Shown here: piece by piece, positions 1 through 43,769 of the stretch | Layout: every line of letters starts with the position of its first letter | How positions within the stretch are numbered: position 1 is the first letter of the stretch | Source of the DNA: Balanoglossus misakiensis | Lineage: Eukaryota; Animalia; Hemichordata | Reading direction: 5' to 3' | Assembly (NCBI GenBank): GCA_040954595.2 | Contig: CM082587.2 | Coordinates: forward strand, 11,289,403 to 11,353,402 | DNA: 64,000 nucleotides | Notes under the pieces: generated by a model | The model's database searches: none | What the model was told of the DNA's origin: nothing | Seen by the model: only the letters and a program-made list of their open reading frames with translations | Program-made: the position numbers and the translations under genes

Positions 1-3000
1 ACCGAATTAAAAAAATAAAGAATGTTTTGCCTAAAAATGACCTTTTTGGTGCAAAAACGAATAAAACGGAATCTTGTATTAAATCAGCTCATTCAGAGTG
101 CATTTTTTATAATAAGCACCATTTTTACATATAATGGAAATTTCATACATCATCAGATATCCAAATATGAAAAAATGATTTAGATTTTAGATGATTGTCC
201 AAAATTAGCTGATATCTAATAAATGTAGTATTGAACCGTTCTGTCCCCCCCCCTACATTATATGCCGTACGCCGATGTCAGCTTACCCGGCAGTACTGCA
301 GGCCGTGCCCCCAACTAACGTCGGTGTTTGAAGCGCCCTGGTTAAATTCGGGCTTTCTCTATAAATTGACAGGCAATAATGCAGTCCTACCCGAACAAAT
401 GTCGAGTGTTGACCCGCTGTGACTTTCCCTCTTCGGTTTGCCCGATAAACTAGGAAAACCGACGTAATCACCGTTGATAACTTTCGCCAGTCTGTGTCAT
501 ATAGAGCCGGTGCACCAGCCGAGTCACGCCGTAGGAAATCTGACTTGATCAACGTGGTCAATGTACGCCTGTTTCTGCTCTAGAGTGCCGGGGCTTCAGC
601 TGAGCCAGGCCGTATGAAAACCCGACGTGATTACCGTTGTTAACTTACGCCAGTCTGTGTCCTATATATAGTGCCGGGGCATCAGCCGTGCCAGGCCGAA
701 GGAAATGTGAGTAGATCAACGTGGTCTCTGTACGCGTGTTTCTGCTCTAGAGTGCCAGGGCTTTAGCCAAGCCATGCCGTGGGAAATCTGACTTGATCAA
801 CGTTGCTAACGAACGCTAGTGTCTGTCATAGTGTGCCGGGGTTTTAGTCGAGCCAAGCCGTAGGAGATCAGACTTGATCAACGTGGTCTCTGTACCCGTG
901 TTTCTGCTCTAGTGTGCCGGGGCTTTATCCAAGCCATGCCGTAGAAAATCTGACTTGATCACCGTTGCTAACGTACGCTAGTGTCTGTCATATTGTGACG
1001 GAGATTTAGTCGAGCCAGGCCGTAGGAGATCTGACTTGATCATCGTGGTCAATGTACGCGTGTTTCCGCTCTAAAGTGCCGGGGCTTCAGCTAAACCAGG
1101 CCGTAAGAAATCCGACTATATCACCGCTGATAACTTACGCCAGTCTGTGTCCTATATATAGTGCCGGGGCATCAGCCGTGCCAGGCCGAAGGAAATGTGA
1201 GTAGATCAACGTGGTCACTGTACGCGTGTTTCTGCTCTAGAGTGCCGGGGCTTTATCCAAGCCATGCTGTAGAAAATCTGACTTGATCACCGTTGCTAAC
1301 GTACGCTAGTGTCTGTCATATTGTGACGGAGATTTAGCCGAGCTAGGCCGTAGAAAAATCGACTTGTTCAACGTTACCAGTGTGCAACTCTTTCTGCTGT
1401 AGAGTGTCAGGGTTTTAGCCGACTTATGCTGTAGGAAATCTGAGTTGATGAACGGGAATTCAATGTTAGAAAACCCGTGTGGAAAGTATCTCTACCCGTT
1501 TGAAACTAAGAAAAGAATTTATTCTTATCTATTTTGTAAAAAAAGACAATTTTTTCGAAAAAAAGTCGAAAATGGTAATTTTGTCTTGGGCGATTCAAAT
1601 TATACCGCCTTTTCTGGAATTTGCAGCACTTTTTACAAGAGAACGACACTTCATGCTCCATAATATTTCCGAAAATGAAGAAAAGGGTTAATTTTTTATT
1701 ATTTTTTTTTAAAATTTACCATTTTTTGTCAAAATATGGCCAAAATGGCTATTTTTTCTTTAATTCCGTCAATATCTCTGCATTTTTGGAGTGGTCGAAA
1801 GTTTTAACATACAATCAACATGTCATATATGATCAGGGCACCAAATTCGAAGAACAAAGGTTTTTTTAGCCAACGTCTTTGTACTAGAGTGTCGGGTCTT
1901 TTGCAGAGCCAGGCCGAAGGAAATCCGACTTGATCACCGTTGCTAACGAACGCTAGTGTCTGTCATGGTGTGCCGGGGTTTTAGTCGAGCCAAGCCGTAG
2001 GAGATCTGACTTGATAATCGTGGTCAATGTACGCGTGTTTCCGCTCTAAAGTGCCGGGGCTTCAGCTAAACCAGGCCGTAGGAAATCCGACGTAATCACC
2101 GTTGATAATTTACGCCAGTCTGTGTCATATATATAGTGCCGGGGCATCAGCCGTGCCAGGCCGAAGGAAATGTGAGTAGATCAACGTGGTCTCTGTACGC
2201 GTGTTTCTGCTCTAGAGTGCCAGGGCTTTAGCCAAGCCATGCCGTAGGAAATCTGACTTGATCAACGTTGCTAACGAACGCTTGTGTCTGTCATGGTGTG
2301 CCGGGGTTTTAGTCGAGCCAGGCCGTAGGAGATCTGACTTGATCATCGTGGTCAATGTACGCGTGTTTCCGCTCTAAAGTGCCGGGGCTTCAGCTAAACC
2401 AGGCCGTAGGAAATCCGACGTAATCACCGTAGATAACTTAGGCCAGTCTGTGTCATATAGAGCCGGTGCACCAGCCGAGTCACGCCGTAGGAAATCTGAC
2501 TTGATCAACGTTGCTAACGAACGCTAGTGTCTGTCATAGTGTGCCGGGGTTTTAGTCGAGCCAAGCCGTAGGAGATCAGACTTGATCAACGTTGTCTCTG
2601 TACGCGTGTTTCTGCTCTAGAGTGGCGGGGCTTTATCCAAGCCATGCCATAGAAAATCTGACTTGATCACCGTTGCTAACGTACGCTAGTGTCTGTCATA
2701 TTGTGACGGAGATTTAGCCGAGCCAGGCCGTAGAAAAATCGACTTGTTCAACGTTACCAGTGTGCAACTGTTTCTGCTGTAGAGTGTCAGGGTTTTAGCC
2801 GACTTATGCTGTAGGAAATCTGAGTTGATGAACGGGAATACAATGTTAGAAAACCCGTTGGGAAAGTATCTCTACCCGTTTGAAACTAAGAAAAGAATTT
2901 ATTCTTATTTATTTTGTAAAAAAGACAATTTTTTCGAAAAAAGGTCGAAAATGGTAATTTTGTCTTGGGTGATTCAAATTATACCGCCTTTTCTGGAATT

Positions 3001-5547
3001 TGCAGCACTTTTTACAAGAGAACGACACTTCATGCTCCATAATATTTCCGAAAATGAAGAAAAGAGTTAATTTTTTATGATTTTTTTTTTAAATTGACCA
3101 TTTTTTGTCAAAATATGGCCAAAATGGCTATTTTTTCTTGAATTCCGTCAATATCTCTGTATTTTTGGAGTGGTCGAAAGTTTAAACATACAATCAACAT
3201 GTCATATATGATCAGGGCACCAAATTCGAAGAACAAAGGTTTTTTAGCCAACGTCTTTGTACTAGAGTGTCGGGTCTTTTGCAGAGCCAGGCCGAAGGAA
3301 ATCCGACTTGATCACCGTTGCTAACGAACGCTAGTGTCTGTCATGGTGTGCCGGGGTTTTAGTCGAGCCAAGCCGTAGGAGATCTGACTTGATAATCGTG
3401 GTCAATGTACGCGTGTTTCCGCTCTAAAGTGCCGGGGCTTCAGCTAAACCAGGCCGTAGGAAATCCGACGTAATCACCGTTGATAACTTACGCCAGTCTG
3501 TGTCCTATATATAGTGCCGGGGCATCAGCCGTGCCAGGCCGAAGGAAATGTGAGTAGATCAACGTGGTCTCTGTACGCGTGTTTCTGCTCTAGACTGCCA
3601 GGGCTTTAGCCAAGCCATGCCGTAGGAAATCTGACTTGATCAACGTTGCTAACGAACGCTTGTGTCTGTCATGGTGTGCCGGGGTTTTAGTCGAGCCAGG
3701 CCGTAGGAGATCTGACTTGATCATCGTGGTCAATGTACGCGTGTTTCCGCTCTAAAGTGCCGGGGCTTCAGCTAAACCAGGCCGTAGGAAATCCGACGTA
3801 ATCACCGTTCATAACTTAGGCCAGTCTGTGTCATATAGAGCCAGTGCACCAGCCGGGTCACGCCGTAGGAAATCTGACTTGATCAACGTTGCTAACGAAC
3901 GCTAGTGTCTGTCATAGTGTGCCGGGGTTTTAGTCGAGCCAAGCCGTAGGAGATCAGACTTGATCAACGTTGTCTCTGTACGCGTGTTTCTGCTCTAGAG
4001 TGGCGGGGCTTTATCCAAGCCATGCCATAGAAAATCTGACTTGATCACCGTTGCTAACGTACGCTAGTGTCTGTCATATTGTGACGGAGATTTAGCCGAG
4101 CCAGGCCGTAGAAAAATCGACTTGTTCAACGTTACCAGTGTGCAACTGTTTCTGCTGTAGAGTGTCAGGGTTTTAGCCGACTTATGCTGTAGGAAATCTG
4201 AGTTGATGAACGGGAATACAATGTTAGAAAACCCGTTGGGAAAGTATCTCTACCCGTTTGAAACTAAGAAAAGAATTTATTCTTATTTATTTTGTAAAAA
4301 AGACAATTTTTTCGAAAAAAGGTCGAAAATGGTAATTTTGTCTTGGGTGATTCAAATTATACCGCCTTTTCTGGAATTTGCAGCACTTTTTACAAGAGAA
4401 CGACACTTCATGCTCCATAATATTTCCGAAAATGAAGAAAAGAGTTAATTTTTTATGATTTTTTTTTTAAATTTACCATTTTTTGTCAAAATATGGCCAA
4501 AATGGCTATTTTTTCTTGAATTCCGTCAATATCTCTGCATTTTTGGAGTGGTCGAAAGTTTAAACATACAATCAACATGTCATATATGATCAGGGCACCA
4601 AATTCGAAGAACAAAGGTTTTTTAGCCAACGTCTTTGTACTAGAGTGTCGGGTCTTTTGCAGAGCCAGGCCGAAGGAAATCCGACTTGATCACCGTTGCT
4701 AACGAACGCTAGTGTCTGTCATGGTGTGCCGGGGTTTTAGTCGAGCCAAGCCGTAGGAGATCTGACTTGATAATCGTGGTCAATGTACGCGTGTTTCCGC
4801 TCTAAAGTGCCGGGGCTTCAGCTAAACCAGGCCGTAGGAAATCCGACGTAATCACCGTTGATAACTTACGCCAGTCTGTGTCCTATATATAGTGCCGGGG
4901 CATCAGCCGTGCCAGGCCGAAGGAAATGTGAGTAGATCAACGTGGTCTCTGTACGCGTGTTTCTGCTCTAGACTGCCAGGGCTTTAGCCAAGCCATGCCG
5001 TAGGAAATCTGACTTGATCAACGTTGCTAACGAACGCTTGTGTCTGTCATGGTGTGCCGGGGTTTTAGTCGAGCCAGGCCGTAGGAGATCTGACTTGATC
5101 ATCGTGGTCAATGTACGCGTGTTTCCGCTCTAAAGTGCCGGGGCTTCAGCTAAACCAGGCCGTAGGAAATCCGACGTAATCACCGTTCATAACTTAGGCC
5201 AGTCTGTGTCATATAGAGCCAGTGCACCAGCCGGGTCACGCCGTAGGAAATCTGACTTGATCAACGTCGCTAACGAACGCTAGTGTCTGTCATAGTGTGC
5301 CGGGGTTTTAGTCGAGCCAAGCCGTAGGAGATCAGACTTGATCAACGTGGTCACTGTACGCGTGTTTCTGCTCTAGAGTGGCGGGACTTTATCCAAACCA
5401 TGCCGTAGAAAATCTGACTTGATCACCGTTGCTAACGTACGCTAGTGTCTGTCATATTGTGACGGAGATTTAGCCGAGCCAGGCCGTAGAAAAATCGACT
5501 TGTTCAACGTTACCAGTGTGCAACTGTTTCTGCTGTAGAGTGTCAGG
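1..5547. repeat. Tandem satellite array (81-bp monomer block + AT-rich block); here mostly a ~1378-bp deletion variant of the 2.05-kb unit
   Basis: Same spurious ORF recurs at 1445, 2825, 4203 (period 1380/1378); GCCGTAGG-type monomers at 528, 609, 695, 776, 857, 938 (~81 bp); same sequence as 47109-64000. Confidence 0.97.
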
Positions 5548-5880
5548 AACACCATGAGAAATATTTTTGTAAAATGAGATATCCTGAATTTTTATGTTTT
5601 CCAATGAAAAACCAAAATAATATTTGCTATCAACATATTTTGAATATTTACCTCTCCTAATTTTTAAAAAATCTTCTTTGATACAAGAATGATCTAAAAT
5701 ATGTTTTTTCCTGCTATAAAAATTAGAGTTTGCAAATGATCATGGGTAACCAAATATTTTTTCAGACAATTCACCTAGGTTTATTTTTGTTTCTTCTGTT
5801 GGATTTTGATTTTTTTTTTTATAAAATGTGAGATGGCCAGTAGCACTGAGAATAAGAAACTATGGTGCTACGACTCTACC

Positions 5881-7928
5881 ACCTTGCTAGGGCAGAGAAT
5901 AAGTACCCCTGGACCTTGCTAGGCCAGTGAATAAGTGCCCCTGGACCTTGCTAGGGCAGAGAATTGGTACCCCTGGACCTTGCTAGGGCAGAGAATAAGT
6001 ACCCCTGGACCATGCTAGGGCAGAGAATTGGTACCCCTGGACCTTGCTAGGGCAGAGAATAAGTACCCCTGGACCTTGCTAGGGCAGAGAATAAGTACCC
6101 CTGGACCTTGCTAAGCCAGTGAATAAGTGCCCCTGGACCTTGCTAGGGCAGAGAATTGGTACCCCTGGACCTTGCTAGGCCAGTGAATAAGTACCCCTGG
6201 ACCTTGCTAGGGCAGAGAATAAGAACCCATGGACCATGCTAGGGCAGAGAATAAGTACCCCTGGACCTTGCTAGGCCAGTGAATAAGTGCCCCTGGACCT
6301 TGCTAGGGCAGAGAATTGGTACCCCTGGACCTTGCTAGGGCAGAGAATAAGTACCCCTGGACCTTGCTAGGCCAGTGAATAAGTGCCCCTGGACCTTGCT
6401 AGGGCAGAGAATTGGTACCCCTGGACCTTGCTAGGGCAGAGAATAAGTACCCCTGGACCTTGCTAGGGCAGAGAATAAGAACCCATGGACCATGCTAGGG
6501 CAGAGAATAAGTACCCCTGGACCTTGCTAGGCCAGTGAATAAGTGCCCCTGGACCTTGCTAGGGCAGAGAATTGGTACCCCTGGACCTTGCTAGGCCAGT
6601 GAATAAGTACCCCTGGACCTTGCTAGGGCAGAGAATAAGAACCCATGGACCATGCTAGGGCAGAGAATAAGTACCCCTGGACCTTGCTAGGCCAGTGAAT
6701 AAGTGCCCCTGGACCTTGCTAGGGCAGAGAATTGGTACCCCTGGACCTTGCTAGGGCAGAGAATAAGTACCCCTGGACCTTGCTAGGCCAGTGAATAAGT
6801 GCCCCTGGACCTTGCTAGGGCAGAGAATTGGTACCCCTGGACCTTGCTAGGGCAGAGAATTGGTACCCCTGGACCTTGCTAGGGCAGAAAATTGGTACCC
6901 CTGGACCTTGCTAGGGCAGAGAATAAGTACCCCTGGACCTTGCTAGGCCAGTGAATAAGTGCCCCTGGACCTTGCTAGGGCAGAGAATTGGTACCCCTGG
7001 ACCTTGCTAGGGCAGAGAATAAGTACCCCTGGACCATGCTAGGGCAGAGAATTGGTACCCCTGGACCTTGCTAGGCCAGTGAATAAGTACCCCTGGACCT
7101 TGCTAGGCCAGTGAATAAGTGCCCCTGGACCTTGCTAGGGCAGAGAATTGGTACCCCTGGACCTTGCTAGGGCAGAGAATAAGTACCCCTGGACCTTGCT
7201 AGGGCAGAGAATAAGAACCCATGGACCATGCTAGGGCAGAGAATAAGTACCCCTGGACCTTGCTAGGCCAGTGAATAAGTGCCCCTGGACCTTGCTAGGG
7301 CAGAGAATTGGTACCCCTGGACCTTGCTAGGCCAGTGAATAAGTACCCCTGGACCTTGCTAGGGCAGAGAATAAGAACCCATGGACCATGCTAGGGCAGA
7401 GAATAAGTACCCCTGGACCTTGCTAGGCCAGTGAATAAGTGCCCCTGGACCTTGCTAGGGCAGAGAATTGGTACCCCTGGACCTTGCTAGGGCAGAGAAT
7501 AAGTACCCCTGGACCTTGCTAGGCCAGTGAATAAGTGCCCCTGGACCTTGCTAGGGCAGAGAATTGGTACCCCTGGACCTTGCTAGGGCAGAGAATTGGT
7601 ACCCCTGGACCTTGCTAGGGCAGAAAATTGGTACCCCTGGACCTTGCTAGGGCAGAGAATAAGTACCCCTGGACCTTGCTAGGCCAGTGAATAAGTGCCC
7701 CTGGACCTTGCTAGGGCAGAGAATTGGTACCCCTGGACCTTGCTAGGGCAGAGAATAAGTACCCCTGGACCATGCTAGGGCAGAGAATTGGTACCCCTGG
7801 ACCTTGCTAGGGCAGAGAATAAGTACCCCTGGACCATGCTAGGGCAGAGAATTGGTACCCCTGGACCTTGCTAGGGCAGAGAATAAGTACCCCTGGACCT
7901 TGCTAGGGCAGAGAATAAGTACCCCTGG
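5881..7928. repeat. 32-bp minisatellite, ~64 copies (ACCTTGCTAGGGCAGAGAATAAGTACCCCTGG and variants)
   Basis: Directly visible; recurring variants GCCAGTGAATAAGTGCCC, GAATTGGTACCC, AAGAACCCATGGACCATG. Confidence 0.98.
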
Positions 7929-8779: not shown

Positions 8780-11110
8780 CTAATTAAAATCTTCTTCGCT
8801 TAAATATCCAGCTCCATTCCAGTGGAGTTGTTGCGTTGCTTGCGAATAGACTGCCTCCAACTCACTGCTGTCCGTCTCAACACATATACTTGGTCTTCCA
8901 AGATTCACCGCCGTTGTGAATACAGAGCCTGGAAATAAAAACACACAAGTACTATTTATAGTAAAAATTAAAATACAAACTGGCATCCATTCCTATGTCA
9001 TTGTTTATATAATATACAGCTTGCTTTGATTGGTAATTTGAGAAACCCAGTATATTTGATAAAATTTATCCTGTTTATCCATTGATTGTTGTGGAACCCT
9101 TTAACTACTTGTGGTTTCAAACATATTCAGCAGTAACTATTTTTCCTGGCAGATAATACGACTCATCTTCAATACATCAAAATGAAGCCTGTTTTTTGAA
9201 TGTGCTTAAAAAATTACATATGAAATGAAACAACTTCTCAACTAACCATATTATGACATGAAAAAAATCTCCTAATCATGTTTACTATTAGATAACCTTG
9301 CCCATTCATCAATTAAATCAGTCACTGTAAGTATTGAACCAGAGAACATGATAATGCGAAAATCAAATGTTTGTTGACTCTCCCCATATAATGCATTTTG
9401 TGTAACTATGTGGAAGCATTTACACTGTCAAAAGGAATTTAATAATATTACTTTTGCTTTGACTTTACAATAATTGTCTGTGTCCTGATCACAACTTTTT
9501 TCCCCATTCATTCTACTAATATGACTAGGTATTGTCTTCCATTTTACTATAATACCACTGCTTTAATTTAAAGTGACAGAGGCCAACAACTGGCAAAATT
9601 TTCTTTGGTTTGAATTGGACTGATGGATGATAAAATGTACACGTGAGTGACAGACAATCACAAAAATATCTTTGCCTGAAATGTATTGCATTTTTTTATA
9701 AAAATGGTCAATGATGAAAAGTGTATTCGTTGTGAATCTTACCTATACTTCTTGTAATGTCCAATACCCATCGCTTTTGACTGGAAAACACATTTATGAT
9801 GTGTTTATACATCTGTGTTTTGTCTTTCTTGTCATCTATAATCCACATATTATGGTGTGCTTCCTCCCCAAAATTTACTTGGGTAGCATTCACCTGTCCG
9901 TCTTCAGCCCAGTATCCAACCACTATACCATACACAGATTTCCATAGGGTCTTCTTGGCTGCAGCAATAAAACATAGAAATATTAATATAGATCTCAAAC
10001 CTTTAATTAAATGATTTAATGTGTGAGATTCCCAGTTCAATGAGAAAAATCAGATAAAGAGAAGCCAAGCATAAATCTTAATGTGCGTACAACAGATACA
10101 TACTGAACCTTCCATGTTAAAATGATTAAAATACTCTCAGCAGAAAACAATATCAAGCTCATTTAAGTTATTGAAATAAAAAAATATTAACAATTTTCTA
10201 AGCCTTTTGATCTTCAATGTGTTACGTGTTGATCATTTTACTCTGGTATTCTCTGAATTTGACCCACTAAATGATGGTACGTCATGTCAAAAGATATAAA
10301 ACCCTTAAAATAAACAACAAAGGCTATTTGAGGAAGGTGAATTGACACCTCCAAAATGTGCCATAATTATCCTATCATGGGGCTTAATTTTACTGGTATT
10401 TGAAACTCAACAGCCAAAAACAGATGACATCTAGCTGAAATTATAATACTTACATGATTTGTTATTTTTCACAAAGTAGAATGCCTCCTCTGTTTGAAGA
10501 CAAGTTTGTTTCAGGATGCTCCTGACCCCACGGATTTCATCTGTCTCGCAGAATACCACAACATTGTAGTACGGGACACCACAATCCAGATTTACAGCTT
10601 TTACAGTTGCCATTACTTTTCAAATATTTTCATCACCAACAATCTGTTGAGATATAGAATTTCAATGCAATGTTAAACTTTAATCAGCACCACTGTCATG
10701 TCATGAAAGATAATATAACATTGATACCGTGAGGTATATTGCAGTCTGAACTTGACTTCAGTTCACAACAATAACAATGTCAACTGTACACATGTCATGC
10801 AGATAAACTATATAATGGGTATTTCATTATGCTTCAGGGATTTGACATGGAAACAAATATTACAACAAAAATGATTTAGAATTAAATATAACTTGAAGCA
10901 TGTGTACAAATATCCAAAATTACATAACAAGTGGAGCTCACATGCACTGGTGTACAGTTCAAGCCTTTACATTAAAAAATTCTGTGCATGTAATTTTATA
11001 AAATCAATCTCTCTCTTAATCTTACCTCATCCATATTAATGAGAGTGAGTTCAGCCCCTGTAAAGTCTGGACAACAGGCCTTGATTTCCTTTGCATTTAA
11101 GGAAGTAACA
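8780..11110 (-). CDS. Exons encoding beta-class amino-methyltransferase-like fold (probably catalytically degenerate)
   Basis: Spliced C-terminus MYKHIINVFSSQKRWVLDITRSIG|SVFTTAVNLGRPSICVETD follows the N6_N4_Mtase pattern (L..II..FS..GDxVLDPFxGSGST..AA..LGR..IGxE); upstream CVLNTDV...GAELTLINMDE sits where motif IV (DPPY) is expected but lacks it. Confidence 0.6.
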
Positions 11111-11699
11111 TCAGTGTTTAGTACACAACCTCGGGTACCATCTTGTCCAGTGAAAATGTTTGTGGCATCAGATTCTTGAACACTGTCTTGCGCATCAAGG
11201 ATCCCCCTGATCTTCTTACATTCAGTCACCATTTCTGCTGGTATTCCTCTGCTGAATGACAAGTCCTTGAACCGGCTAAGATACTCTCTGCCGGCATACT
11301 CAGGTAATTTTTCTGAAAATATCTGCCATGGCATCTGAAGTTCTTTCATCATATTCTGTTGTATAACCTTCATCTTTTTTACATCTTTTGCTTCTCTATT
11401 CATCTCCTGCAGGCTCATCTCCCCCTCTCTGACATTTTGGAGAAAATCACTGACTGTATCTTCATTTAGGAGAACAAGGTTGCTAAATAGATATACAGGT
11501 ATATCAGGTTTAGCCATCAAAGTTTTCTTGGTGAATTTTTGTCCTTTTAGAGTCCCCGTCTCATATGCATCAAAGATATCATCAAGCGTGCTGGCAATAT
11601 CCGGACCCAGTCTTGCAAGATTTAGGATTGTTTCAATATCTTTGTCATTCTGTGAAGGAAACAAAAAATTTTCTATTTTCGTTTCTGTTAGTAAATACT

Positions 11700-11843
11700 T
11701 ACCTTTGATCCAACCTATAGCCTAATATATCTCGCCCTCTAACGACCGCTGAGATAAAAAAACTTTCCCCTGATTACGTCATACTCACCGAGTACATATA
11801 CCACCTGTCCAGCCGTGAATATTCAGTATTGCTCAGCACGAGA
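11700..11843. repeat. DIRS 3' inverted terminal repeat
   Basis: Reverse complement of 17149-17296 with few mismatches. Confidence 0.95.
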
Positions 11844-11954
11844 AATAACTGCTCAGGCCGAAACTATGCTGCCCACGCACTGAGGACCCATCCAAAATTT
11901 ATGAATAATGGAAAAACAGTCACAGGTCAAGTGTGGGGAGGCGGGTGGGTACCT

Positions 11955-12053
11955 GGTTGGATCAAAGGTAAGTATTTACTAACAGAAACGAAAATAGAAA
12001 ATTTTTTGTTTCTATGGCATAAATACCATACCTTTGATCCAACCTATAGCCTA
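11955..12053. repeat. DIRS internal complementary region (ICR)
   Basis: First half is the reverse complement of the element end from 11659, second half the reverse complement of the end at 17316, joined through TTT. Confidence 0.95.
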
Positions 12054-12126
12054 CAGAGTCCCAAGGAACAACTGGCGGTGGGACTTGAACCGAAAAAACA
12101 AAATTCCAACAGAAAGAACCAGGCTA

Positions 12127-14331
12127 TTACTTACTGTGAGCTACCCTTTGAGCTACACAGATAGGACCCAAGGAAAATAAGCCATCTGCTTCCGCTGCCA
12201 TATCTCGCAGATAAGCAGAGGAAAAAGTAGTCTGTGATCTCCACTGGACTGCAGACAATAAATCAGCCATGGAAGTCCCTGAAAAAAGTGACCATGAAGC
12301 AGCAAGAGCTCTGACTTCATGAGCTGACACCTTAGCCCAGCTAATTGCTTCTTCTGAAGGGCTAGAATAAGCAAACTTAATAGTCTCGACGATCCATCTG
12401 GAAATAGTCGACTGTGAAATAGACATACTGGGTGTAACCCTAATGGAGATAAACAGTCTTGTCTGCTCTCCCCTCCTGTCTTTTGTTCTCTGCAAATAAT
12501 ACTTCAGTGCTCTGATAGGACAGAGCAACCTATCCTCTGAACGCTGACCGACTAACTTCGTCAGTTTCGGAATAACCAGAGGCGATTGTGGCAGATCCGC
12601 AATCCGATTCTTTGCCAAGAAAGCTGGGTCAGTAAGCAAAGTGACACTGTCTGCTGACCAACGAATATGAGCTGAAGCCATAGACAGGGCATGAAGCTCA
12701 CTACGGCGACCTGCCGTAGCTAATGCCAAAAGAAAAACAGTCTTGTACGTCAAGAACTTCATCTCTGCTGTTTGCAAAGGTTCAAATGGAGCTCCTAATA
12801 AAGCATGTAGAACCAAAGATAAACTCCACTGGGGAACCAGTGACTTTACAACTGGTCGCGCCAAAGAGAAATTACTAATCAAAGCAGAAATAGACCCGTC
12901 CAGGGTAGTAACTTCCTCACCCAACAATCGAAGTGTGTTACCTATAGCTGAACGGTACGCCTTAATAGTGCTCACTGCTGTCTTTTTCTCCCTAAACAAG
13001 TAGAGGAAAAAATCTGCTAGCTGAGGAGGCGTGGGTCTGAGAAAATCAATCGACCTTTTCTCACACCAATGACGAAAGGAACACCACTTTGAATCATATG
13101 CTGCCGTGGTGGATGCTCGTCGGCGTTGTGCGATGCGCGAGGCAGCTTCTGCAGAAAAGCCTCTTGCCTGAAAACTGAGCTTGATAGTCTCCAAGCGTGG
13201 AGGTGAAGGTGTTGTGCTACCGGAGGCAGCCGAACAGTCTCCTCCATGCAATTGTGTGGTAATGTCAGTGGACAGTCCACCAGTAACTGGAGTAGTCTTG
13301 GAAACCAAGGACGTGTTGGCCATAGTGGTGCAACTAGAAGTATTTCGCATTCTTCGTGTGCTACCTTGGAAATTACCCTGGAGATCAACGGTAGTGGGGG
13401 AAATGCATATGCCAACATTCCCTTCCAGCTGATTGACAGAGCGTCGCATGCTAGTGCTTGTGGTTCCGACCTTAGTGACGCGTAAATCGGGAACTTGCGA
13501 TTCTTGGCTGTCGCAAATAGGTCTACGTGGGGCCTGTCCCAAATCAGACAAATCTGCTCTACTAGCGGTTGCCGTAGAGCGCACTCTAGTGGATATAACT
13601 TGTCCCGTGATAGAGCATCTGCCAGAATGTTGCTTGTGCCCTGAACGTGGAGTGCTTTCAGCGTGATGCTGTTCGCCTGGCACCAATTCAGCATGTCCCA
13701 TACCAGATAACACAGGCTGGGTGATCTGGTGCCGCCCTGGTGATTTATAAATGCGACTACTGTGGTGTTGTCTGACCTGATCAGAATCACCTTGCCGCAA
13801 ATGTCTTGGTGAAAGTGGAGAAGTGCATACTGTACTGCCTTCATTTCCAACCAATTTATGTGCCGCACTGACTGGTCGACTGACCATATCCCTGAAATTG
13901 TCCTGTCTCCCAAGTGTGCACCCCACCCTTGGAGTGATGCGTCCACAAACAGTGACACCGTCGCCAACGGGGATACTAGGGGATTTCCCTCGAGAGTATT
14001 CCCCCTGTCTAGCCACCATTGCAGGTGTGAAACTAGAGGTGGCTTTACCTGAATAAGGTCTGTCAACTGACCGGATACCGGCCTCCAATGAGCCAACAGG
14101 AACAGTTGAATTGGCCTCATATGTAGTCTGCCTAAAGGTATTGCCTCGGCTAGAAAGTTCATGCGACCCAGGATGCTGAGCAATGTGCGTGCTTGGACCA
14201 TGGACTCTGAACTGATCCGATGCACTTGTTGTTCTAATTTCAACAGGTTTTCCTCCGTAGGGAAAACTAAACCCTTGGACAGATCCATGACCATGCCAAT
14301 GAACTGGATCCTCTGTGAGGGGATTAGACAA
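12127..14331 (-). CDS. DIRS tyrosine recombinase ORF (5' part overlaps pol)
   Basis: RRASTTAAYDSKW core-binding region; catalytic R (GRRSEL), HEVR, W, Y (AYLRD); LLCPIRAL motif. Confidence 0.95.
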   Translation of the reverse strand: MSNPLTEDPVHWHGHGSVQGFSFPYGGKPVEIRTTSASDQFRVHGPSTHIAQHPGSHELSSRGNTFRQTTYEANSTVPVGSLEAGIRSVDRPYSGKATSSFTPAMVARQGEYSRGKSPSIPVGDGVTVCGRITPRVGCTLGRQDNFRDMVSRPVSAAHKLVGNEGSTVCTSPLSPRHLRQGDSDQVRQHHSSRIYKSPGRHQITQPVLSGMGHAELVPGEQHHAESTPRSGHKQHSGRCSITGQVISTRVRSTATASRADLSDLGQAPRRPICDSQESQVPDLRVTKVGTTSTSMRRSVNQLEGNVGICISPTTVDLQGNFQGSTRRMRNTSSCTTMANTSLVSKTTPVTGGLSTDITTQLHGGDCSAASGSTTPSPPRLETIKLSFQARGFSAEAASRIAQRRRASTTAAYDSKWCSFRHWCEKRSIDFLRPTPPQLADFFLYLFREKKTAVSTIKAYRSAIGNTLRLLGEEVTTLDGSISALISNFSLARPVVKSLVPQWSLSLVLHALLGAPFEPLQTAEMKFLTYKTVFLLALATAGRRSELHALSMASAHIRWSADSVTLLTDPAFLAKNRIADLPQSPLVIPKLTKLVGQRSEDRLLCPIRALKYYLQRTKDRRGEQTRLFISIRVTPSMSISQSTISRWIVETIKFAYSSPSEEAISWAKVSAHEVRALAASWSLFSGTSMADLLSAVQWRSQTTFSSAYLRDMAAEADGLFSLGPICVAQRVAHSK

Positions 14332-15206
14332 GACTTATCTGTGCTCGGAATGAACCCCACACGAACGGTCTCCCGTAGTGTGGTTTGTGTGTCTGCCAGT
14401 GTCAACTGGAAACTGGAATTGTGTAGCAACCAGTCGTCCAGGTATGGATTGGCTTGTACTGCTCGGGAATGAAGAAAAGCCATCAACGCCCCTACTACCC
14501 GTGTAAAAATAGCCGGGGCAGTGGCCAAACCGAACGGAAGAGCCACAAACTGGAACAGTTTGCTCCCTATCGCAAAGCGAAAGTACCTCTGGAAGTGAGC
14601 ATGGATAGGAATGTGGAAATAAGCGTCCTGCAAGTCTATCGTCGTTGCCCAATCTCCCGTGGAGAGAGCCTGACGAATAGTTCGAGTGGTCTCCATACGG
14701 AAAGACTCGATTATAATGTACTGATTGAGCACGCTCAGGTCCAAAATGGGTCTCCATCCCTGTGATTTCCTTTGAATAAGGAAAACACGACTGAAAAACC
14801 CCGTATCCTGAACTGGTAAAGGGACCTTTTGAATGGCCCCTTTTTCCAACAGCCCCTGTATGGCCCTCCACATAGGAGGGGAAGGGTGCGATACCAAATG
14901 ACTTGGAGGATACAACGAAAGGGGTGGAAACGTCCTGAAGAATAGACGAACCCCTTCCGAAACTAAAGAGAGGACTGTTTGGTCGTCTGTAATTTTCTGC
15001 CATTCCTGGGCAAAATGTTTCAGACGACCCCCAACTGCTACCTGTGGCAATGGTGTCTGGGGCATAGTCACAGATTGTGACCCCATTACCCCTTTGTCCT
15101 GACTTGTGTAGTCACTTGTGCTGGCTGCTAGCCCCTTTGGGGGGCTTAGCCTGCTGACGAAAGGGCTGACCCTTCCTTTGCTTGTTAAATGGTCTCTTCC
15201 TAGCAA
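13017..15206 (-). CDS. DIRS pol: reverse transcriptase, RNase H and Dam-like methyltransferase (MT) domain
   Basis: IDLQDAYFHIPI, LPFGLATAP, YLDD; RNase H FVDASLQGWG, HINWLE, SDNTT; MT VDLFAT...YAFPP...VAPLWP. Confidence 0.97.
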   Translation of the reverse strand: MLGRDHLTSKGRVSPFVSRLSPPKGLAASTSDYTSQDKGVMGSQSVTMPQTPLPQVAVGGRLKHFAQEWQKITDDQTVLSLVSEGVRLFFRTFPPLSLYPPSHLVSHPSPPMWRAIQGLLEKGAIQKVPLPVQDTGFFSRVFLIQRKSQGWRPILDLSVLNQYIIIESFRMETTRTIRQALSTGDWATTIDLQDAYFHIPIHAHFQRYFRFAIGSKLFQFVALPFGLATAPAIFTRVVGALMAFLHSRAVQANPYLDDWLLHNSSFQLTLADTQTTLRETVRVGFIPSTDKSCLIPSQRIQFIGMVMDLSKGLVFPTEENLLKLEQQVHRISSESMVQARTLLSILGRMNFLAEAIPLGRLHMRPIQLFLLAHWRPVSGQLTDLIQVKPPLVSHLQWWLDRGNTLEGNPLVSPLATVSLFVDASLQGWGAHLGDRTISGIWSVDQSVRHINWLEMKAVQYALLHFHQDICGKVILIRSDNTTVVAFINHQGGTRSPSLCYLVWDMLNWCQANSITLKALHVQGTSNILADALSRDKLYPLECALRQPLVEQICLIWDRPHVDLFATAKNRKFPIYASLRSEPQALACDALSISWKGMLAYAFPPLPLISRVISKVAHEECEILLVAPLWPTRPWFPRLLQLLVDCPLTLPHNCMEETVRLPPVAQHLHLHAWRLSSSVFRQEAFLQKLPRASHNADEHPPRQHMIQSGVPFVIGVRKGRLIFSDPRLLS

Positions 15207-16863
15207 ACTTCCGTTTGCCGGTGAACTTTGACCCAGAGACAGAAGACTGAGCCTGTGCTACTGCTAACTGTTCTACAGCCAACTTCTGCTTAAGCAACTC
15301 CTCATTTGTTCTAAGAACAGCATCAAATTGCCCATTAAAAACCAATGGACCTGACCATGGGAGAAGACGGGCAGTACGAGCTGCCTCCCTTTCCAAAGGA
15401 AGATGACTGATAAGATGGTCACGCGTCATCAACACTTGAGACGCTGCCATACGAGAATTCAATTCTGCTTGATAAACCACAGCCTTAGCGGCTTCAGTTA
15501 ACAACAGTTTGGCATGCTGCCAATTTTCTGCTATCTGAGGAGTAGATTCACCCTCCTGCATGGGTTTAAGCTCTCTGCTTAAAGCTGAGAGTAACAGAAA
15601 AGTGCAATTAGAGATCCTTGCGGAAAGACGAGTAGTTGCCTCTAAGCGGGCAAAATCCTCAGCCCTAATCACATAATTCCTCAAAACCTCTTTATTTCTT
15701 ACCAACTGCTTTGCGGATTCATCAACCGCTGGTGAAGAGTGGTAGAATGGTCCACGTGTAAGATCAAACACGCGACTACCCTGAGGTCTAGACACCAATG
15801 GGAAAACATGACTTGGCATCCCTTGAGGGTAACAACGAGGTTTCTTGTTAGCAGTGTAACAAAAGTCCCTGGTGCCGTTAATCTCGGCATGTACCGTGTC
15901 TATCAGAGACGACAGACGAGGAATAAAAGGTAGCTTTCGGTGTACCGGATCAGCTGCCTTACCCAACACATGTTCAAAAGAAGCCGTCAGCTGTTCTGCC
16001 GACACTTCAGCAGTGGGTGGGGGACATTCCTCAGGGGGTACAGTATTATACACTAGCATAACCGCGTCAGCCCATTGACTGGCGCGACTAGTTTCCTCTT
16101 GATCGGACAAACTGTCTTCGTCCTCATCCTGCCCCTCTGACTCCGATTGTGAAACATCGAAGGAGGAAATAGGAGGGGCAGGGACAGTGTGACCACTGTG
16201 CACAGGATTTTGGCCCGACACAGAGACCCGATTAGCTTGAGCAGGCATACCCCAGCTTGTGGACTGAAGTGGTGCCGCCAAATTAGAGGGAGGACAAGTC
16301 CATGGGAAACCCCACGACTGTTGGAAGCCCGGAGGGGGAAAATTCCCACCAGCCTAAGCGACTCCCGAAGCTAATTGGTCTGGTACACACATAGGGGGTG
16401 GGCCGTGAAGCCCTCCCCACACACTACCGGCACTACCTATGGACGTCGAAGGCACTGGATTAGCCAAGACGGAGGTAGGAACCGTATGAAAATACCTAGA
16501 AGACATACCTGCATAATTCGGCCAAACACCTGACTGAACAGTTTGCGCCGATGAAACACCTCCCAAATGAGACGGACCCGGAACTGCTGCATCCAAAAAG
16601 GAAGAAACCGGCAAAACAGGAGTTTCTGCAACCGTCCTAGCAGCTGATGAATCCAACTTGGATCGCTTCGAAGCGAGCGAAGCCCTAGCAGAAGCATGGC
16701 CGCCATCTTGGGATGACCCCCTAGCTAACTCAGAAAAAACATCAGGCTCTTCAGAGTGCGCTGAATGGAAAGCTTGACCCGGAATAGGCAGTTGAGAGTC
16801 TTCTATTTCCGAAGGAGTACGAGAAGACGACCGCGACGCGGTGTCAGAAACTCTCTCCGTCAT
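15112..16863 (-). CDS. DIRS gag-like ORF1 with a single in-frame TAG
   Basis: ORFs 16354-16863 and 15112-16281 are in one frame: ...DQLASGVA*AGGNFPPPGFQQSWGFPWTCPPSNLAAPLQ...; position upstream of pol. Confidence 0.85.
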
Positions 16864-17148
16864 GGTTCCAGTGAAAACACGAAAAAATGCACGGGCAAAA
16901 ATGGCTTCTGAAGGCTATATGAAAAGACAATACCGCAGAAGCCCTACACACTGACCCGTACACGTGCGGGAAAAATCCGAAAAACAAACTTTGCAAGTGC
17001 CAAAATAACACTAGCAAGCAGTTTAGAAAATAAGTCGTTACTTATCTACTTCCCCAATCGAAAAACCTCAGGCGAAAAGCAGCAATGGTCGAAGGGCTGA
17101 GCACTTCTTGACAAAAATCCAACACCTCAAGAGAGAAGATGTCCGCTG

Positions 17149-17296
17149 TCTCGTGCTGAGATAATAATACTGAATATTCACGGCTGGACAGGTGTTATGT
17201 GTACTCGGTGAGTATGACGTAATCAGGGGAAAGTTTTTTTATCTCAGCGGTCGTTAGAGGGCGAGATATATTAGGCTATAGGTTGGATCAAAGGTA
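17149..17296. repeat. DIRS 5' inverted terminal repeat
   Basis: Reverse complement of 11700-11843. Confidence 0.95.
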
Positions 17297-18109
17297 TGGT
17301 ATTTATGCCATAGAAATGAACACAACATATTTACAACTGTACAATCAAACATAACAGCTTTGAGACAAGCTACTTGAACAGAGAGTAGTTAAGCAAGGTT
17401 AAAAATGCCCCAAACTACAAACATGCAATCTTAACCATAATTTACAATACATTTTACCCAATTTAACTGACTTAGATTGTTGCAATTGTCAAGGCAATAA
17501 GAACTCAAAAAGGAACAAAAACCTCCCTAAAATATAGATATCCATAAGGGTGCATCTTTGTTGCTACATTACCAACTTGAGTAATAAATCTGATTATAAT
17601 GTACTTGAATTATAAGTCAGTCAGACCAATAATAATCATAAAATAATAATGCAAATTATATCATTACCTGTTGTAAGATATTCTTACAGGACTTCTTCCA
17701 CTCTTCTGAAGCTGTATTTGCAGATAGTAACCTGTCACGGCACAACTGGACCTAATGAAAGTAATGAAACACAAAGTGTAATGGCATACTTCTTTTTGCA
17801 TAACTATATGATATTTGATAATGCAGTGATAAGATCAAGTCACCCCCTGAAATGTCATCCCCTGAAATGTTACTACCAAAATTAAATTTGGATCCTTGTA
17901 TATAAAAAAAAACAGCGTGTTCGTGCCTGTTAGAAGAAAAAATACATGTAGCCTGTAGTAAAAGTCATCCTATTACACCATTGCCATCACCAGTCAATAA
18001 TGGGGCATGAGAACTTCATGAAAAAAGTGAAGAAATTACTCCATGACAGTAAAAACTGTTGTAATCAAAGCTTCAACGACCAAGTTACATATACTTTGCA
18101 ATTTCTCAC

Positions 18110-18719
18110 CTTCTCTCTTGTGCTGATCCGGTGTACCAGGTGCTGAATATCATTGTGTCTGTTGGATACCCACATCGCTGCCTCTTCTGGCAGATTACAA
18201 TAAATTTTGCAATTTCTTGCTTTAAAAAGGGGTCGATCTTTGTATTTGTCACTCATTTGCTTCGTGGCTGTAAAGTTATACTGGCCTCCGAGAATACTAT
18301 ATTTATATCCATTCACCTGGAAAATATACAATAAATTATTATGACTTATATTATGAACATTACATCTGCTGTAAGATTATATTCAACATCTCTGAATAAT
18401 TTTTGTGTTACATGAATAGATGGACCTAAACAATTAGCTTTTATAATAGTAGAAAAACCTTTGATGTAGCAGATTATTGAAACTTGTCAATGCTGCATTT
18501 AATGAAAAGTACTGTTTTTTTCGCATTCGCAGCAGTTGCTCATACTTACATTATTCTTATTAAATTTGTTCTTCTCAACATCCACCATGACTATATATGG
18601 AATGTAGGAGTCGTCGGTGAACTTTTCCATACTGTCAACAAGTTGTTTCACGAAATAGTTGTCGACGTCCCGTACTTGTTTGCCCAGGTGCAAATTGCAT
18701 ATGTGAATGCTTGAAATAC
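18110..18719 (-). CDS. Two exons encoding ParB/Sulfiredoxin-like domain
   Basis: IHICNLHLGKQVRDVDNYFVKQLVDSME...PYIVMVD...YSILGGQYNFTATKQM...CKIYCNLPEEAAMWVSNRHN matches the ParB-N layout (I.I..L, R......L..S, P.IV, Y.I.xG.H...A, ..EEA.....EN). Confidence 0.62.
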
Positions 18720-21193
18720 CTTCAGATGAAACAGAAAAAAAAAGATGAACAATGACACTCACTATGATTGTGGAAATACCCTGGCAGATCTCACAAGAGA
18801 TCCCCAGCCATTTTAGCAGAAATGTTAGCAATAGTCTTATTTTGGAGCCCCTCAAGTCTTGCCAAATCCAAATCTTAAAATAATGTAATGGACATGAAAC
18901 AAAATTTAAAAACACATGTATGTATTGTTCTTTGGCAATCATTAATAAGTGTGACTGGATTGTATCATAAAATAAAATAAATCGATGTGCTTATGCAGAA
19001 ATCATATTGAAACCGACATACCGCAACAAAAATTGACATGCATTATAAGTATGATGCAAGTTTATGTCCTTGTATTAATTTCGACAAATATATTATGAAT
19101 CACTGACAACCAGACAGTCTATGTGACACCCAAGCTTTAAAAACATCCTCACCAGGAATCGCATGGCTTTCAACAAGCTGCTGCATAGAAATGTCTGCTT
19201 CAACTTCACAAGCAGGTGATCCCTTTCTCCTCTTCTTTGTCAAATCTGGTATACTGTCGCCACTTTTTGGTCGTTTCTTCTTGTTTTGTTTCTTGCCGGT
19301 ACCTACACGTATACTAAGGAGATAAGACATAATAAAAAATGCATATAAGTAAACAGTACAAGCACCTGTGCTTCTATTCAGCTTATAAAGTTCAATACAA
19401 TTGGCAGAATGTTCTAACAGGAGAAGGCAGAGGGTAACGGGATAGTAAAAGCTCCAAGCATATTCCTGACGAGTCAGTTCATCCTCAATTTCCGTGAAGC
19501 TAAATTATTCACTCCCCACCCCTCTGAATCACTGTCCTAAGCCTACTTCAGTGTAAGTATTTTTTTGCTTATATTTTGTAGTTTCCTTTCCTATTACAGG
19601 ATATTGTATGATTCTGGGTTGGATCATCCAGAAACTGACATAGAGGATTTGTTAAATTTCATTATTGTAAAAACATTCAATTACCAAGGACAAAGTTATA
19701 CCCATGAACTTGCCAAGTCTTTCTAATTTCACAGCTCTATATAAAAATTGTCATTGACATGAAGCTTGTCATCAAAACACAATTCCCTTCTGTTGGTGCC
19801 ATTCAAAATTAAACCCCTGTACCCAAATAATTGACAAGTACGATTTCAGCTTCACACACGCCTGGTTATACAAACGACTTACATAGGAAGTACTGATTTT
19901 CCTCATAACTTACCAAATGTTGTTAGAACTGTTGATAGGATCAGGAGACACAGATCTACTTCCAGTGGGACTGCCTGTGTTGATAGGATCAGGAGACACA
20001 GATCTACTTCCAGTGGGACTGCCTGATGTGCTACTGGTAGGGCTACTTTGACTGCTTGATGTCCTGCGAGGTGGAGACTCACTGTCAGATACTGATGAAA
20101 CTGTTTCCATAGTAACATCCGCTTGCTCAATTGGTGTCAGCTCTTCTGGATGCTCACTGGCACTGCTCACTAGTTCCCTGTATTTTGTTACAAAGTCAGC
20201 TGCAACTGTTATGTCTCGAAAGTTGCGACAGAAGTCATTTCGATGCCACTCAAATTCTTGACGATAGAAAGTATGGCGCTGAGTCTCAAAATGTATCTGA
20301 AGAGAAAACAAACAACTGCGTCAATGCAATGACAAAACAACCCTGAAAATCAATACTTATGAATCATATGTCTAACTATTTACTAACAAGTATCACTATC
20401 ACACAGTGGAGTTGAAGATTAGCCATATCAAATCTACTGGTACAACCCTTCCTACCAAACACATTTCTGGAGACAAACGTATGAGCCCCCCCCCCCTCCA
20501 CACACACACACACACACATACATATGTACAAACTCATACTTCCATGAATACGAGAGTAACTGGAACAACAAGACTAACCTTGATGCCAACTTGTCCAAGG
20601 CTGTTTCTGTTTTTGACGTCCATTTCCAACTTCACAACAGCAGAAGTTGGTTCTTTTGCGTCTTGCCCACGACCACCTTTCGTCAGCCGGTGTCCAACCT
20701 TGCCATTTGCACCACTCTTTTTTGGGTCCGTGACATGCACGAAAACTTCGTTCTCTTTCTCACCTTCCACAAACCACCAATGCCTTTTCACGGTCATCTC
20801 AGTTGCCAAGTCTTCTTCGCTGTACCGCAGAATGGGTATACTGATTGTAGCCATCTCACCACACTGTTTATATGCAGTTGCTCATGCCCAGGGTAGTCGA
20901 AAACGGAGGGTAATTTGCATGGCATTTCCTGTCAGTATTTAACACTTCATTGTAGAGTGATCTGGAGGGTCAGGTGTGTATTAGGGAGTGATTAGGAACT
21001 TCCTGTCGCAACGGCCGATGAACGACGCTCAACGGCCACCTGTCTGGCCCTGCGAACAATAGTACGTCGTACACATCTTTGCTTCTTCGCACCGCGCACG
21101 ATTTCCAGAGATTTTTTATCTTGATTTATCTTGATTGCCATGATTTAAATCATGGCCAGTCAGGGAAGGAAGCCTTTTGGCTTATATAATCCC

Positions 21194-24048
21194 TCATTGT
21201 CCTTTGTAGCTGTCAAGTCTTATTTTGAAGTCCAGAACAGTTTTAGCATCAACAATATGTGTAGGTAGTTTGTTCCATTCAGCTATAATCCGTTGGGTGA
21301 AGAAGAATTTCCTGCAGTCCAGGCGAAAGCATGATTTTGCTAATTTAAGTGAGTGCCCCCTTGTCCTGTGATGTTGACTGAATGTGAACAGTACGTCTGG
21401 GGAAACTCTATCTATTCCTCTCACAATCCTGAATACTTGTATCAAGTCCCCTCTTGTTCTTCTTTCTTCTAAAGTTGTCAGTTTAAGTTCTTTTAACCTG
21501 GATTCATAACTGAGATGGCTAAGCTCTGGTATCAGTTTTGTTGCTCTTCGTTGTACTTTTTCGACTAATTCAACATCCTTAGTATAGTGTGGGTTCCAGT
21601 ATTGTACAGCATATTCAATGTGGGGTCTAACCAGTGACTTGTATAGTTGCATAATATTGAACTTTGTCTTGTACTTTATATTCCTTTTAATAACTCCAAG
21701 GGCTCTATTTGCTTTCTTTACTGCTTCAGCACAGTGTCGACTTGTCTTCATGGAATTATGAATAAGCACCCCCAGATCCTTTTCCTCTTCAACTGGAGTG
21801 AGTGCTTTATTATTCATGGTGTAGTTAAATGATGGATTTGTTGATCCCACATGCATTACCTTACATTTGTCAACATTAAATGACATCTGCCATTCCTCCG
21901 ACCAAGCTTCAAGGTTGTCAAGATCTTTCTGGAATTTCTCCTTGTCCTCCTGATTCCTAACAATTCTGCCAAGTTTAGTGTCATCAGCAAACTTAAGGAT
22001 CACTGACTTTACAGCATCGTCAATGTCATTAATATAAATCAGGAATAAGATGGGACCGAGCACGGACCCCTGTGGGACACCACTTGTAACTGTAGACCAC
22101 ATAGATGCTGAACCATTTAATACTGTTCGCTGTGCTCTTCCATCTAACCAATTCTGTATCCATGACTTAATTTTACCGACGATGCCATGAGCTTCTAGTT
22201 TAGCCACCAACCTGGTGTGTGGGACCTTGTCAAAAGCTTTACTGAAATCCAGGTAGGCTATGTCGACTGGCTTTCCCTCATCCACAGATTTAGTAACATA
22301 TTCGAAGAACACCAGTAGATTTGTCACACAAGATAACCCTTTCCTGAAACCATGCTGACTATCCTTTATCAGTTTGTTTGTCTCCAAGTGGTCCACAATG
22401 GCATTCCTAATTAGTGTCTCAAATAGCTTACACAGGATTGAGGTTAGACTTACAGGTCTGTAGTTTCCAGTTTTGCACTTGGGCCCTTTTTTGTATATTG
22501 GTGTGACGTTGGCTTTCTTCCATACTTCTGGAACTGTTCCTTGTTGTAGTGTTGCATTGAAAATGACTGTGATTGGCCAAGCTAGCTCTTCTGCCAGTTC
22601 TCTCAGTACCTTTGGATGAATATTATCTGGCCCTGGCGTTTTAATGGGATTTAACTTTCTCAGTAGCTTGAGTACATCTTCTTGTGTTACTATGATATCT
22701 GATAGAAATTTGTCAGTGTCACTAATTATCTGTTCAGGTTGTGGAATATTGCTTAGATCCTCCCTTGTGAACACAGATGCAAAGAAGTTATTTAGTAACT
22801 CAGCCATAGCCTTATCTGTAACTACTGTTTCACCGGAATCATCCTTCAGTGGTCCAACTGTGTCCCTAGTTTTCTGTTTCTTCCTTATGTAGGCATAGTA
22901 GCTTTTTGGATCCTTCTTAATATTCTTACAAAGTTCCTTTTCAAAGAGTCGTTTTGCTGTACGGATTTCTTGACACGTTTCTCTCTGTGCATGCTTGTAA
23001 CTAACAAAGTCACTATAGTCTTTTGATTGTGTATATCTTTTCCAAGCATTATATTTCTTCCTAATTTTCTTTAGTACCTTCTTGTTAATCCACAATGGTT
23101 GATTTCTTTTCTTCTTATACTGCTGGGGTGTAAATTTAGTCACAGTTTCATTGATAACATTTATCAGTTTATCCCAGCATTGCTCTACGTTGATTTCCCT
23201 GAAAGTTTCTTCCCAATTTATGTGCTTTAAATGTTCCTTCATTCCTTTGTAGTCTGCCCTATTATAATTTAGCGTGTGACTCGCTTTAACTTTAATAGGT
23301 ATGTTTACAGTTGTGTTCCAAACAAGAGTTAAGTGGTCACTGTTCCCAAGATGTTCCCTGACTTCAACATCATCTATCATCTGTGGCTCTGTAGTAAACA
23401 CTAAGTCAAGAATAGACTTCCCCTTGTAGGCAATAGTACATGTTGTGTGTAAAAACAATCTTGTACAGCATCCAGAAACTCCTGGCTATCTTTAGTTCCT
23501 GCAGATTGCCTCTGCCAGTCTATGGACGGATAATTAAAATCACCCATACACAGAACACGCTGTGTACTTGCAGCATTTAATAGTCTCACGAGTTCAGCGT
23601 TGTTACTGCTATCAGAGTTCGGGCTACGATAACATACTCCAACAAGTAAGCTATCTCCATCACCACACATTATCTCGCCCCATATACTTTCTTGGAAGCC
23701 AAAATTGGACAAATCGTCTCTTGGTAAGACAGTGTACTTGTTCTTTATATACAAAATTACTCCCCCTCCCCGTCTATTTGTTCTGTCTTTCCTCAACATA
23801 TTATAACCTTGGAGAGTTAGCTCAGCATCAGAATAACTTTCATTTGCCCAGGACTCAGTTACTGCAATTATATCTGGATTTATTTCTGCAGCCATAGATT
23901 CCAAGTCTTCCAGTTTGTTGATCAAACTTCTTGCATTGGTGCATATACAAAGTAAATTATTTACAGTTTCACATCTTCTGTCTTGACTCTGATTTGATGA
24001 ATAAATACTATTTACACTATTTACACTATCCGAGCAGCTTTGGCTCAT
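21194..24048 (-). pseudogene. LINE ORF2: AP endonuclease + reverse transcriptase, one frameshift near 23420
   Basis: TNARSL, VTESW, GGGV, YRSP, MGDFN, SDH (APE); NYRPVSLTS, LDFSKAFDKV, GVPQGSVLGP, FADD (RT); CR1-type C-terminus TRGHSLKL. Confidence 0.95.
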
Positions 24049-25812: not shown

Positions 25813-25898
25813 CTAGCTCTGGACTTATGCGCTGTTTGGGTCTACGCTGCTCTCCGTGGAGCAGCGTAGACCCAAACAGCGTACAAGTCCAGAGGTAG
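25813..25898. repeat. Short palindromic hairpin / MITE-like element
   Basis: CTCTGGACTT..GCTGTTTGGGTCTACGCTGCTC-loop-GAGCAGCGTAGACCCAAACAGC..AAGTCCAGAG. Confidence 0.8.
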
Positions 25899-28800: not shown

Positions 28801-29092
28801 TCCAAGGCTGGTACGAGAGAAAAAGCACACTGAAAACCTTGGGAAAGTGCCAATGCATGCAACAGGTATTCCATTTTAATATAAGCCACACTAATACAAT
28901 GGTCTTTATGTAACTCACTTGACATCTGTCTATCCAGACAATTAGTAAATAGGTGAGAATGGTCCAGATGATAAATGTCCAGGAACCACAATCTGACACC
29001 AATCCAGTAGCAGATGAAGTAATTACATGTATGGGTGGACAGACCACAGGTGATCGTGGACTTGTGCTGTCACAGGGGAGTTCTGTTTTAGA

Positions 29093-29172
29093 TGCTACCA
29101 GAGCGAATGGGGGGATCTGCTAGGAGCGACTTCCGACGCTCCTAGCAGATCCCCCAATTCGGTCTTGTAGCA
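29093..29172. repeat. Intronic palindromic hairpin / MITE-like element
   Basis: GGGGGATCTGCTAGGAGCG-loop-CGCTCCTAGCAGATCCCCC with TGCTAC...GTAGCA outer arms. Confidence 0.8.
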
Positions 29173-43762: not shown

Positions 43763-43769
43763 GTGTTAA

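Follow-up and report, generated by a model that had tools for sequence, protein, structure and literature searches.

Two tandem arrays separated by 26.75 kb in a 64,000-nucleotide window (the whole stretch of DNA analyzed here) carry a common sequence core in the same orientation, raising the questions of what kind of element holds them, what the core is for, and why it is repeated directly. The sequence-only reading had taken the core to be a protein-binding site and had ascribed its orientation to head-to-tail tandem copies, a circular intermediate, or terminal direct repeats. The arrays are a real feature and form part of an element of a known kind in a new host group, with a putative binding-site role.

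Two direct arrays and their shared core

The left subterminal array (positions 5881 to 7928, + strand), delimited by TRF and register alignment, consists of 64 units of nine types, every one exactly 32 bp long when placed in register, and a block of about 20 units is present twice; such recent block duplications are typical of minisatellites. The right array (34679 to 34824, + strand) is composed of one decayed and four conserved units of 31 bp. TRF reported it as 4.9 copies at 34680 to 34832, and a weight-matrix scan located one extra decayed unit at 34678 while detecting no minus-strand site above a score of 11.3 (of 38). With up to two mismatches allowed, the core pattern matched 55 times, always on the + strand (51 matches in the left array and 4 in the right), compared with an expectation of 0 from 100 shuffles. 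When the consensus units of the two arrays were compared, 20 of 21 core bases were identical in direct orientation (score 18), as the sequence-only reading had described; the inverted comparison matched 5 bases at best, and the top score of 300 shuffled units was 10. The difference in spacers that had been noted was likewise borne out (TGGACCTTGCT versus CACAAATTTC): their length is kept at 10 to 11 bases while their sequences are unrelated, and identity ends sharply at the core edge.

The dyad within the core is weak, with four of five arm positions pairing, a value reached by 502 of 2,000 shuffles (25%). The invariant positions extend beyond the dyad arms, and the core is mostly asymmetric. 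With one mismatch allowed, 67 array units conform to the pattern GGGYA-N9-TRCCC, but the pattern was drawn from those same units and its dyad is equaled by 25% of shuffles. The exact core was absent from the viral contigs searched and from all 80 metagenome loci described below.

The possibility had also been raised that the motif is a widespread minisatellite independent of the neighboring genes. For the 31-bp array, contig depth (330 to 1,100) was of the same order as that of the element body (140 and 430 to 460), which argues against such independence, and the depth of the surrounding satellite was mostly 0.4 to 1.9 million, more than 1,000 times that of the element; contig depth is not equivalent to copy number.

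A probable Sola1-type element with an accessory gene

Between the arrays lie two genes arranged head-to-head, one encoding a transposase on the + strand and the other a ParB-like accessory protein on the - strand, in agreement with the earlier assignment of the arrays to a transposon bearing both. The nearest named relatives of both proteins are uncharacterized proteins of the hemichordate Ptychodera flava. The element measures 29 kb with its insertions and about 19 to 20 kb without two nested retroelements. One is a DIRS-type retrotransposon (11658 to 17316, - strand) within an accessory-gene intron, with a reverse transcriptase, inverted termini, and an internal complementary repeat; the other is a LINE (21194 to 24956, - strand; coordinates of its open reading frames) between the two genes, with a PHD-bearing ORF1, an AP endonuclease, and a reverse transcriptase. 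The DIRS element has long open frames, and its insertion point lies only a few bases upstream of one of the accessory gene's splice acceptors.

The spliced DUF7869 transposase gene (26863 to 33967, + strand) encodes the motifs DGMDQ, QLDNCxRENKN, and FLxVGHTHEDIDQ, all of which are kept in an alignment of 86 transposase relatives, together with a cysteine-rich N-terminal region containing conserved C, H, and W residues. Its frame changes near 27150 and near 28786, and the latter change, located in a stretch of A residues, may stem from misassembly. The exons are 81 to 96% identical to P. flava DUF7869 proteins, apart from one N-terminal piece at 61% and two matches at 70% and 44% that overrun a frame change or exon end. 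P. flava itself contains diverged subfamilies, with transposases 87% and 43% identical. A total of 467 relatives of the transposase were found, and the 120 listed include proteins from marine invertebrates, Chara, and Riccia.

A structure model of a relative's transposase, rather than of the window's own protein, had a pLDDT of 89 and gave weak matches to TnsB, IstA, and Mos1 (best E value, 2.8e-4); the predicted fold is RNase H-like and unlike that of a tyrosine recombinase. No tyrosine recombinase was found for the element, and the sole integrase SAM-like match in the window sits in the nested DIRS element, where it scores below the Pfam cut-off. Compared by eye with the published Sola1 HMM consensus (PMC5751038 supplement), the transposase clade matches at D..QK....P, DNC...NKN, and FL..GH, and the distance from the second D to F is 31 residues in both, whereas the clade deviates in detail (DGMDQ and RENKN). 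The Sola2 signature (DFxENY, SDG..QYKN, and FATSHGK) was not matched, by eye, in part 1 of 2 of the published alignment, and the accessible part of the Majorek supplement contained neither GHTHED nor DGMDQ. No paper on DUF7869 was found in the literature searched. The element gives the domain a likely identity as a Sola1-clade transposase.

The spliced accessory gene (8795 to 20797, - strand) has about 10 exons, 60 to 89% identical to the P. flava partner protein, and encodes a ParB/Srx-like domain, a helical part, and a beta-class amino-methyltransferase-like domain. In P. flava, the partner was the next RefSeq accession, on an equal-sized contig, for all three transposase entries looked up; because the accessions are consecutive and the contigs equal in size, we infer that the two genes are adjacent at three loci. 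A search of representatives recovered 248 relatives of the accessory protein. N6_N4_Mtase exceeded the Pfam cut-off in 5 of the 32 that were scanned, the P. flava partner proteins had no ParB or methylase match in Pfam, and a PDB sequence search with the partner protein returned no match. The structural evidence comes from a model of a relative (sharing 27% identity with the P. flava protein and, again, not the window's own), which matched beta-class methyltransferases at an E value of 4.5e-10 and Myxococcus ParB at 3.7e-6; its predicted folds resemble those of ParB-parS systems and of the beta-class amino-methyltransferases M1.HpyAVI, CcrM, M.PvuII, and bdelloid N4CMT. An Atlas structure search with the P. 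flava accessory protein retrieved ParB clusters weakly, at TM scores of 0.38 to 0.49. Atlas feature matches to fungal DUF3723 (0.94, with 156 to 163 shared features) serve as a lead only.

Beta-class amino-methyltransferases canonically carry a (D/S)PPY catalytic motif and a DxFxGxG SAM-binding motif, and the arginine patch with which ParB binds CTP is GxxR. In the window, the catalytic and SAM-binding sites read LINMDE and LDITRS, so that both motifs are eroded. At the arginine patch, the P. flava proteins have GGQHN, and GGNHR is kept in some relatives; because GGQHN replaces GxxR, a CTP-driven clamp formed by a P. flava-type protein is doubtful as judged from sequence. The clustered repeated sites of bacterial ParB-parS systems are also seen in the window. 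In contrast to the bacterial systems, the element has no visible ParA gene, and GxxR, DPPY/SPPY, and a perfect palindrome are absent.

Element ends, metagenomic relatives, and published elements

The element lies in a satellite field (1 to 5547, + strand) with a unit of about 1378 bp, made up of a 330-bp AT-rich part headed by the hairpin TTTTCGA..TCGAAAA, about 11 copies of an 81-bp monomer, and a 139-bp linker. Satellite sequence ends at 5547 and is followed directly by AACACC, the opening of the element and the first bases to depart from the satellite. The left terminus was therefore predicted as AACAC (5548 to 5552, + strand), a call made by motif match alone that places the first base of the element, by inference, at 5548. 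The AACAC start is common to three metagenomic relatives (L005, L011, and L080), the Ectocarpus element Sola1-1_Ec32 starts with AAC, and AACA[CT] occurs at 0.3% of window positions. The left array begins 333 bp inside this terminus. At the right junction (34825 to 34830, + strand), the array meets the satellite at a common ACAA(A)TTTTT stretch, where the last 31-bp unit passes into the satellite hairpin and about 139 bp of satellite are missing; the satellite then resumes (34831 to 36116, + strand) with the unit type of the left flank (98% over 700 bp), and units beyond 47 kb are only 68 to 69% identical to the right-flank unit. Neither an inverted copy of the left terminus nor a target duplication was found in the window at this junction. 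Because one contig, in one of three runs, bridges the junction without difference, it is not only an assembly artifact. The right terminus was likely deleted in this copy of the element, which is probably dead.

A second contig leaves the 31-bp array by a different route, running into about 200 bases that match nothing in the window, and was seen in both runs in which the element occurs (one sample); the third run yielded no matching contig, which carries no weight. This contig begins inside the array, and its tie to the element genes is presumed only. The first 30 of the 200 bases look like a further decayed unit that keeps GGGCA-N9-TACC. This exit also matches the L005 right inverted repeat over 11 bases; the match was considered as a sign of a terminus and dropped, since the bases fit a decayed unit better.

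A scan of metagenomes confirmed 539 stretches, from which 80 loci were kept. The partner gene was present in six of these (profile match probability, 99.8) and was head-to-head with the transposase gene in five, corresponding to 5 of the 13 loci with at least 2.5 kb upstream. Terminal inverted repeats were found in L005, L011, and L080. L005 is a complete element of 7.6 kb with a 37-bp inverted repeat and the gene pair, and L080 comprises 11.3 kb bounded by 36-bp inverted repeats and flanked on both sides by ATAT, so that one of the two complete relatives has a 4-bp target duplication and L005 has none. An RTGTT end follows the transposase in 10 of the 12 loci queried; the end patterns were written after the ends had been seen, but for several pairs of loci the alignment breaks off at these same positions. 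Long inverted repeats were also observed in L001 and L046.

In four of the five head-to-head loci, arrays of palindromic sites occupy the stretch between the two genes, kilobases away from the ends, which is the placement seen in the plant-like relatives. The palindromes of these relatives are perfect, unlike the core in the window. L061 contains 20 sites of both orientations (11 + and 9 -), with no partner gene detected within its 6-kb contig, and no such array was found in L005 by pattern search. The plant-like partner gene in L011 (1648 to 4913) keeps DIPY and DLFSG and, on these motifs, may encode an active methyltransferase.

The closest published counterpart is Sola1-1_Ec32 from Ectocarpus, a 21.5-kb Sola1 element with a ParB-like and N4C/N6A methyltransferase gene opposite the transposase, termini AACCG-CGGTT, a 4-bp duplication, and Sola1-1_PPa as its best match, for which, in the available part of the paper, self-binding and self-modification are proposed (PMC12477816). 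As far as that part describes it, the two elements share their large size, the opposed ParB-methyltransferase gene, and the AAC start. They differ in host (an alga versus an animal), and the window element has eroded methylase motifs, subterminal arrays that are nearly asymmetric, and a lost right end; the 282-bp imperfect inverted repeat and 4-bp target duplication reported for Sola1-1_Ec32 were not found in the window. Of the Sola1 class features, the motifs agree by eye and the left start is that of the family, whereas terminal inverted repeats are absent from this copy; the target duplication (4 bp, often AWWT) is not seen in the window, which lacks the right end and its flank. The element is very probably a Sola1-type transposon with a ParB-methylase accessory gene.

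The Bostrychia Plavaka elements with PAG2 and PAG3, in the portion of the preprint consulted, carry inverted-repeat tandem arrays beside ParB genes that were proposed as binding sites (bioRxiv 10.1101/2025.02.11.637652). They resemble the window element in combining a transposon-borne ParB-like gene with repeat arrays and differ in belonging to another transposase superfamily, in which, as far as the text goes, the fusion partners are a 2OG oxygenase for ParB and a SET domain for the methylase. The N6_N4_Mtase and SET gene that stands beside a DUF7869 transposase in two metagenome loci (L019, 2360 to 5743; L024, 4516 to 5970) is the type of fusion known as PAG2 in Plavaka elements. The accessible portions of Iyer et al. 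(PMC4738411), Rodriguez et al. (PMC8885841), and a Marchantia preprint do not describe the element, and a literature search for Sola1, ParB, and transposon returned the Ectocarpus paper alone. No animal case was found in print, in coverage that excluded most subscription papers and Repbase. The window extends the algal transposon design to a deuterostome-type genome.

Candidate binders of the core and the direct orientation

It is plausible that a protein binds the conserved core. We lean toward the explanation that both arrays lie inside the ends of a single 29-kb, two-gene Sola1-type transposon inserted in satellite, that its right terminus was likely lost, and that the ParB-like protein is the likely binder. 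By analogy, this protein probably binds the core, because of the arrays in relatives and the red-algal proposal. In the mechanism envisaged, a DDD transposase would cut at short inverted termini starting with AAC, and the ParB-like protein, probably dimeric, would load on the repeated core at intervals of three helical turns and then coat or bridge the element ends or regulate the element. The methyltransferase domain would serve DNA binding only, because its catalytic motifs are eroded. Both arrays may have been seeded by one core, with the left array growing later by slippage or unequal exchange. The arrays would be internal sites, with inversion needed at the termini only; because ParB-type binding would not need inversion, the direction of the arrays need not imply a new mode of transposition. 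The best reading of the arrays is thus as putative binding sites indifferent to orientation, and the truncated end mostly accounts for the orientation puzzle. A defined candidate pair of protein and site makes testable the proposal that accessory proteins bind their own element.

Two other explanations remain real rivals because the dyad is no better than 25% of shuffles. The core of the same element could be a subterminal site for the transposase itself, with the same orientation tolerated at both ends, which we consider rather unlikely. Both arrays are near the ends (the left one 333 bp from the terminus), the core is mostly asymmetric, and the cysteine-rich N-terminal region has the conserved residues described above; moreover, Ac and En/Spm have subterminal sites in both orientations. 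Repeated sites in four of five two-gene relatives, however, lie between the genes and kilobases from the ends, and the published arrays, as far as the preprint shows, adjoin ParB genes (bioRxiv 10.1101/2025.02.11.637652).

Alternatively, the arrays could be neutral minisatellites: template switching would have carried a copy of the core to the opposite end of the element, and amplification would have followed without any protein binding the core. Identity at 20/21 bases and a common direction would both follow from a single such copy, the recent block duplications of the left array are minisatellite-like, and the core dyad is not significant. This history is nevertheless improbable: identity halts sharply at the core, yet the unrelated spacers keep 10 to 11 bases, and arrays of repeated sites recur in distant relatives.

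The cause first proposed for the direct orientation (copies joined head to tail, a circular intermediate, or directly repeated termini) is very improbable. In its favor, the orientation is real, the window lacks a terminal inverted repeat and a target duplication, and the satellite units on the two sides of the element run in the same direction. Against it, the left 330 bp occur only once in the window, where neither another copy of the element nor a terminal direct repeat specific to it is seen; the repeats that flank the element are abundant satellite; no part of the window matches the other exit of the 31-bp array; the enzyme has a predicted RNase H-like fold rather than that of a tyrosine recombinase; and relatives with both ends have inverted termini.

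Beyond binding of the core by the ParB-like protein, a speculative and unlikely extension is a miniature parS/ParB system in an animal transposon. A ParB-pseudomethylase would coat helically phased arrays at both ends whatever their orientation, would replace long inverted repeats in pairing ends 20 to 30 kb apart, and may favor the main satellite of the host, which is possibly centromeric, as an insertion site.

The abundant satellite is a candidate centromeric repeat. It is composite, with 81-bp monomers and AT-rich parts of 330 to 340 bp at 1 to 5547, 34831 to 36116, and 47109 to 64000, and its higher-order units measure about 1378 and 2050 bp. The hairpin TTTTCGA-N-TCGAAAA is present in each unit (1552, 2931, 4309, 34831, and eight more positions); the palindromic sites of plant-like relatives are also TCGA-based, a likeness that is probably due to chance. 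A 1.76-kb element (45350 to 47109) with inverted ends made of 18- to 22-bp repeats (CCCAATATGTAAT) stands between a reverse transcriptase-bearing element (42461 to 45377) and the satellite. Long single hairpins occur at 25813 to 25898, 29093 to 29172, 30632 to 30735, and 36700 to 36830, with arms of 36 to 45 bp in the three measured; two of the four are in introns of the transposase gene, and they resemble small palindromic mobile repeats. The window also contains two copies of a 500-bp direct repeat (37711 to 38708) and a 67-bp array (41116 to 41488).
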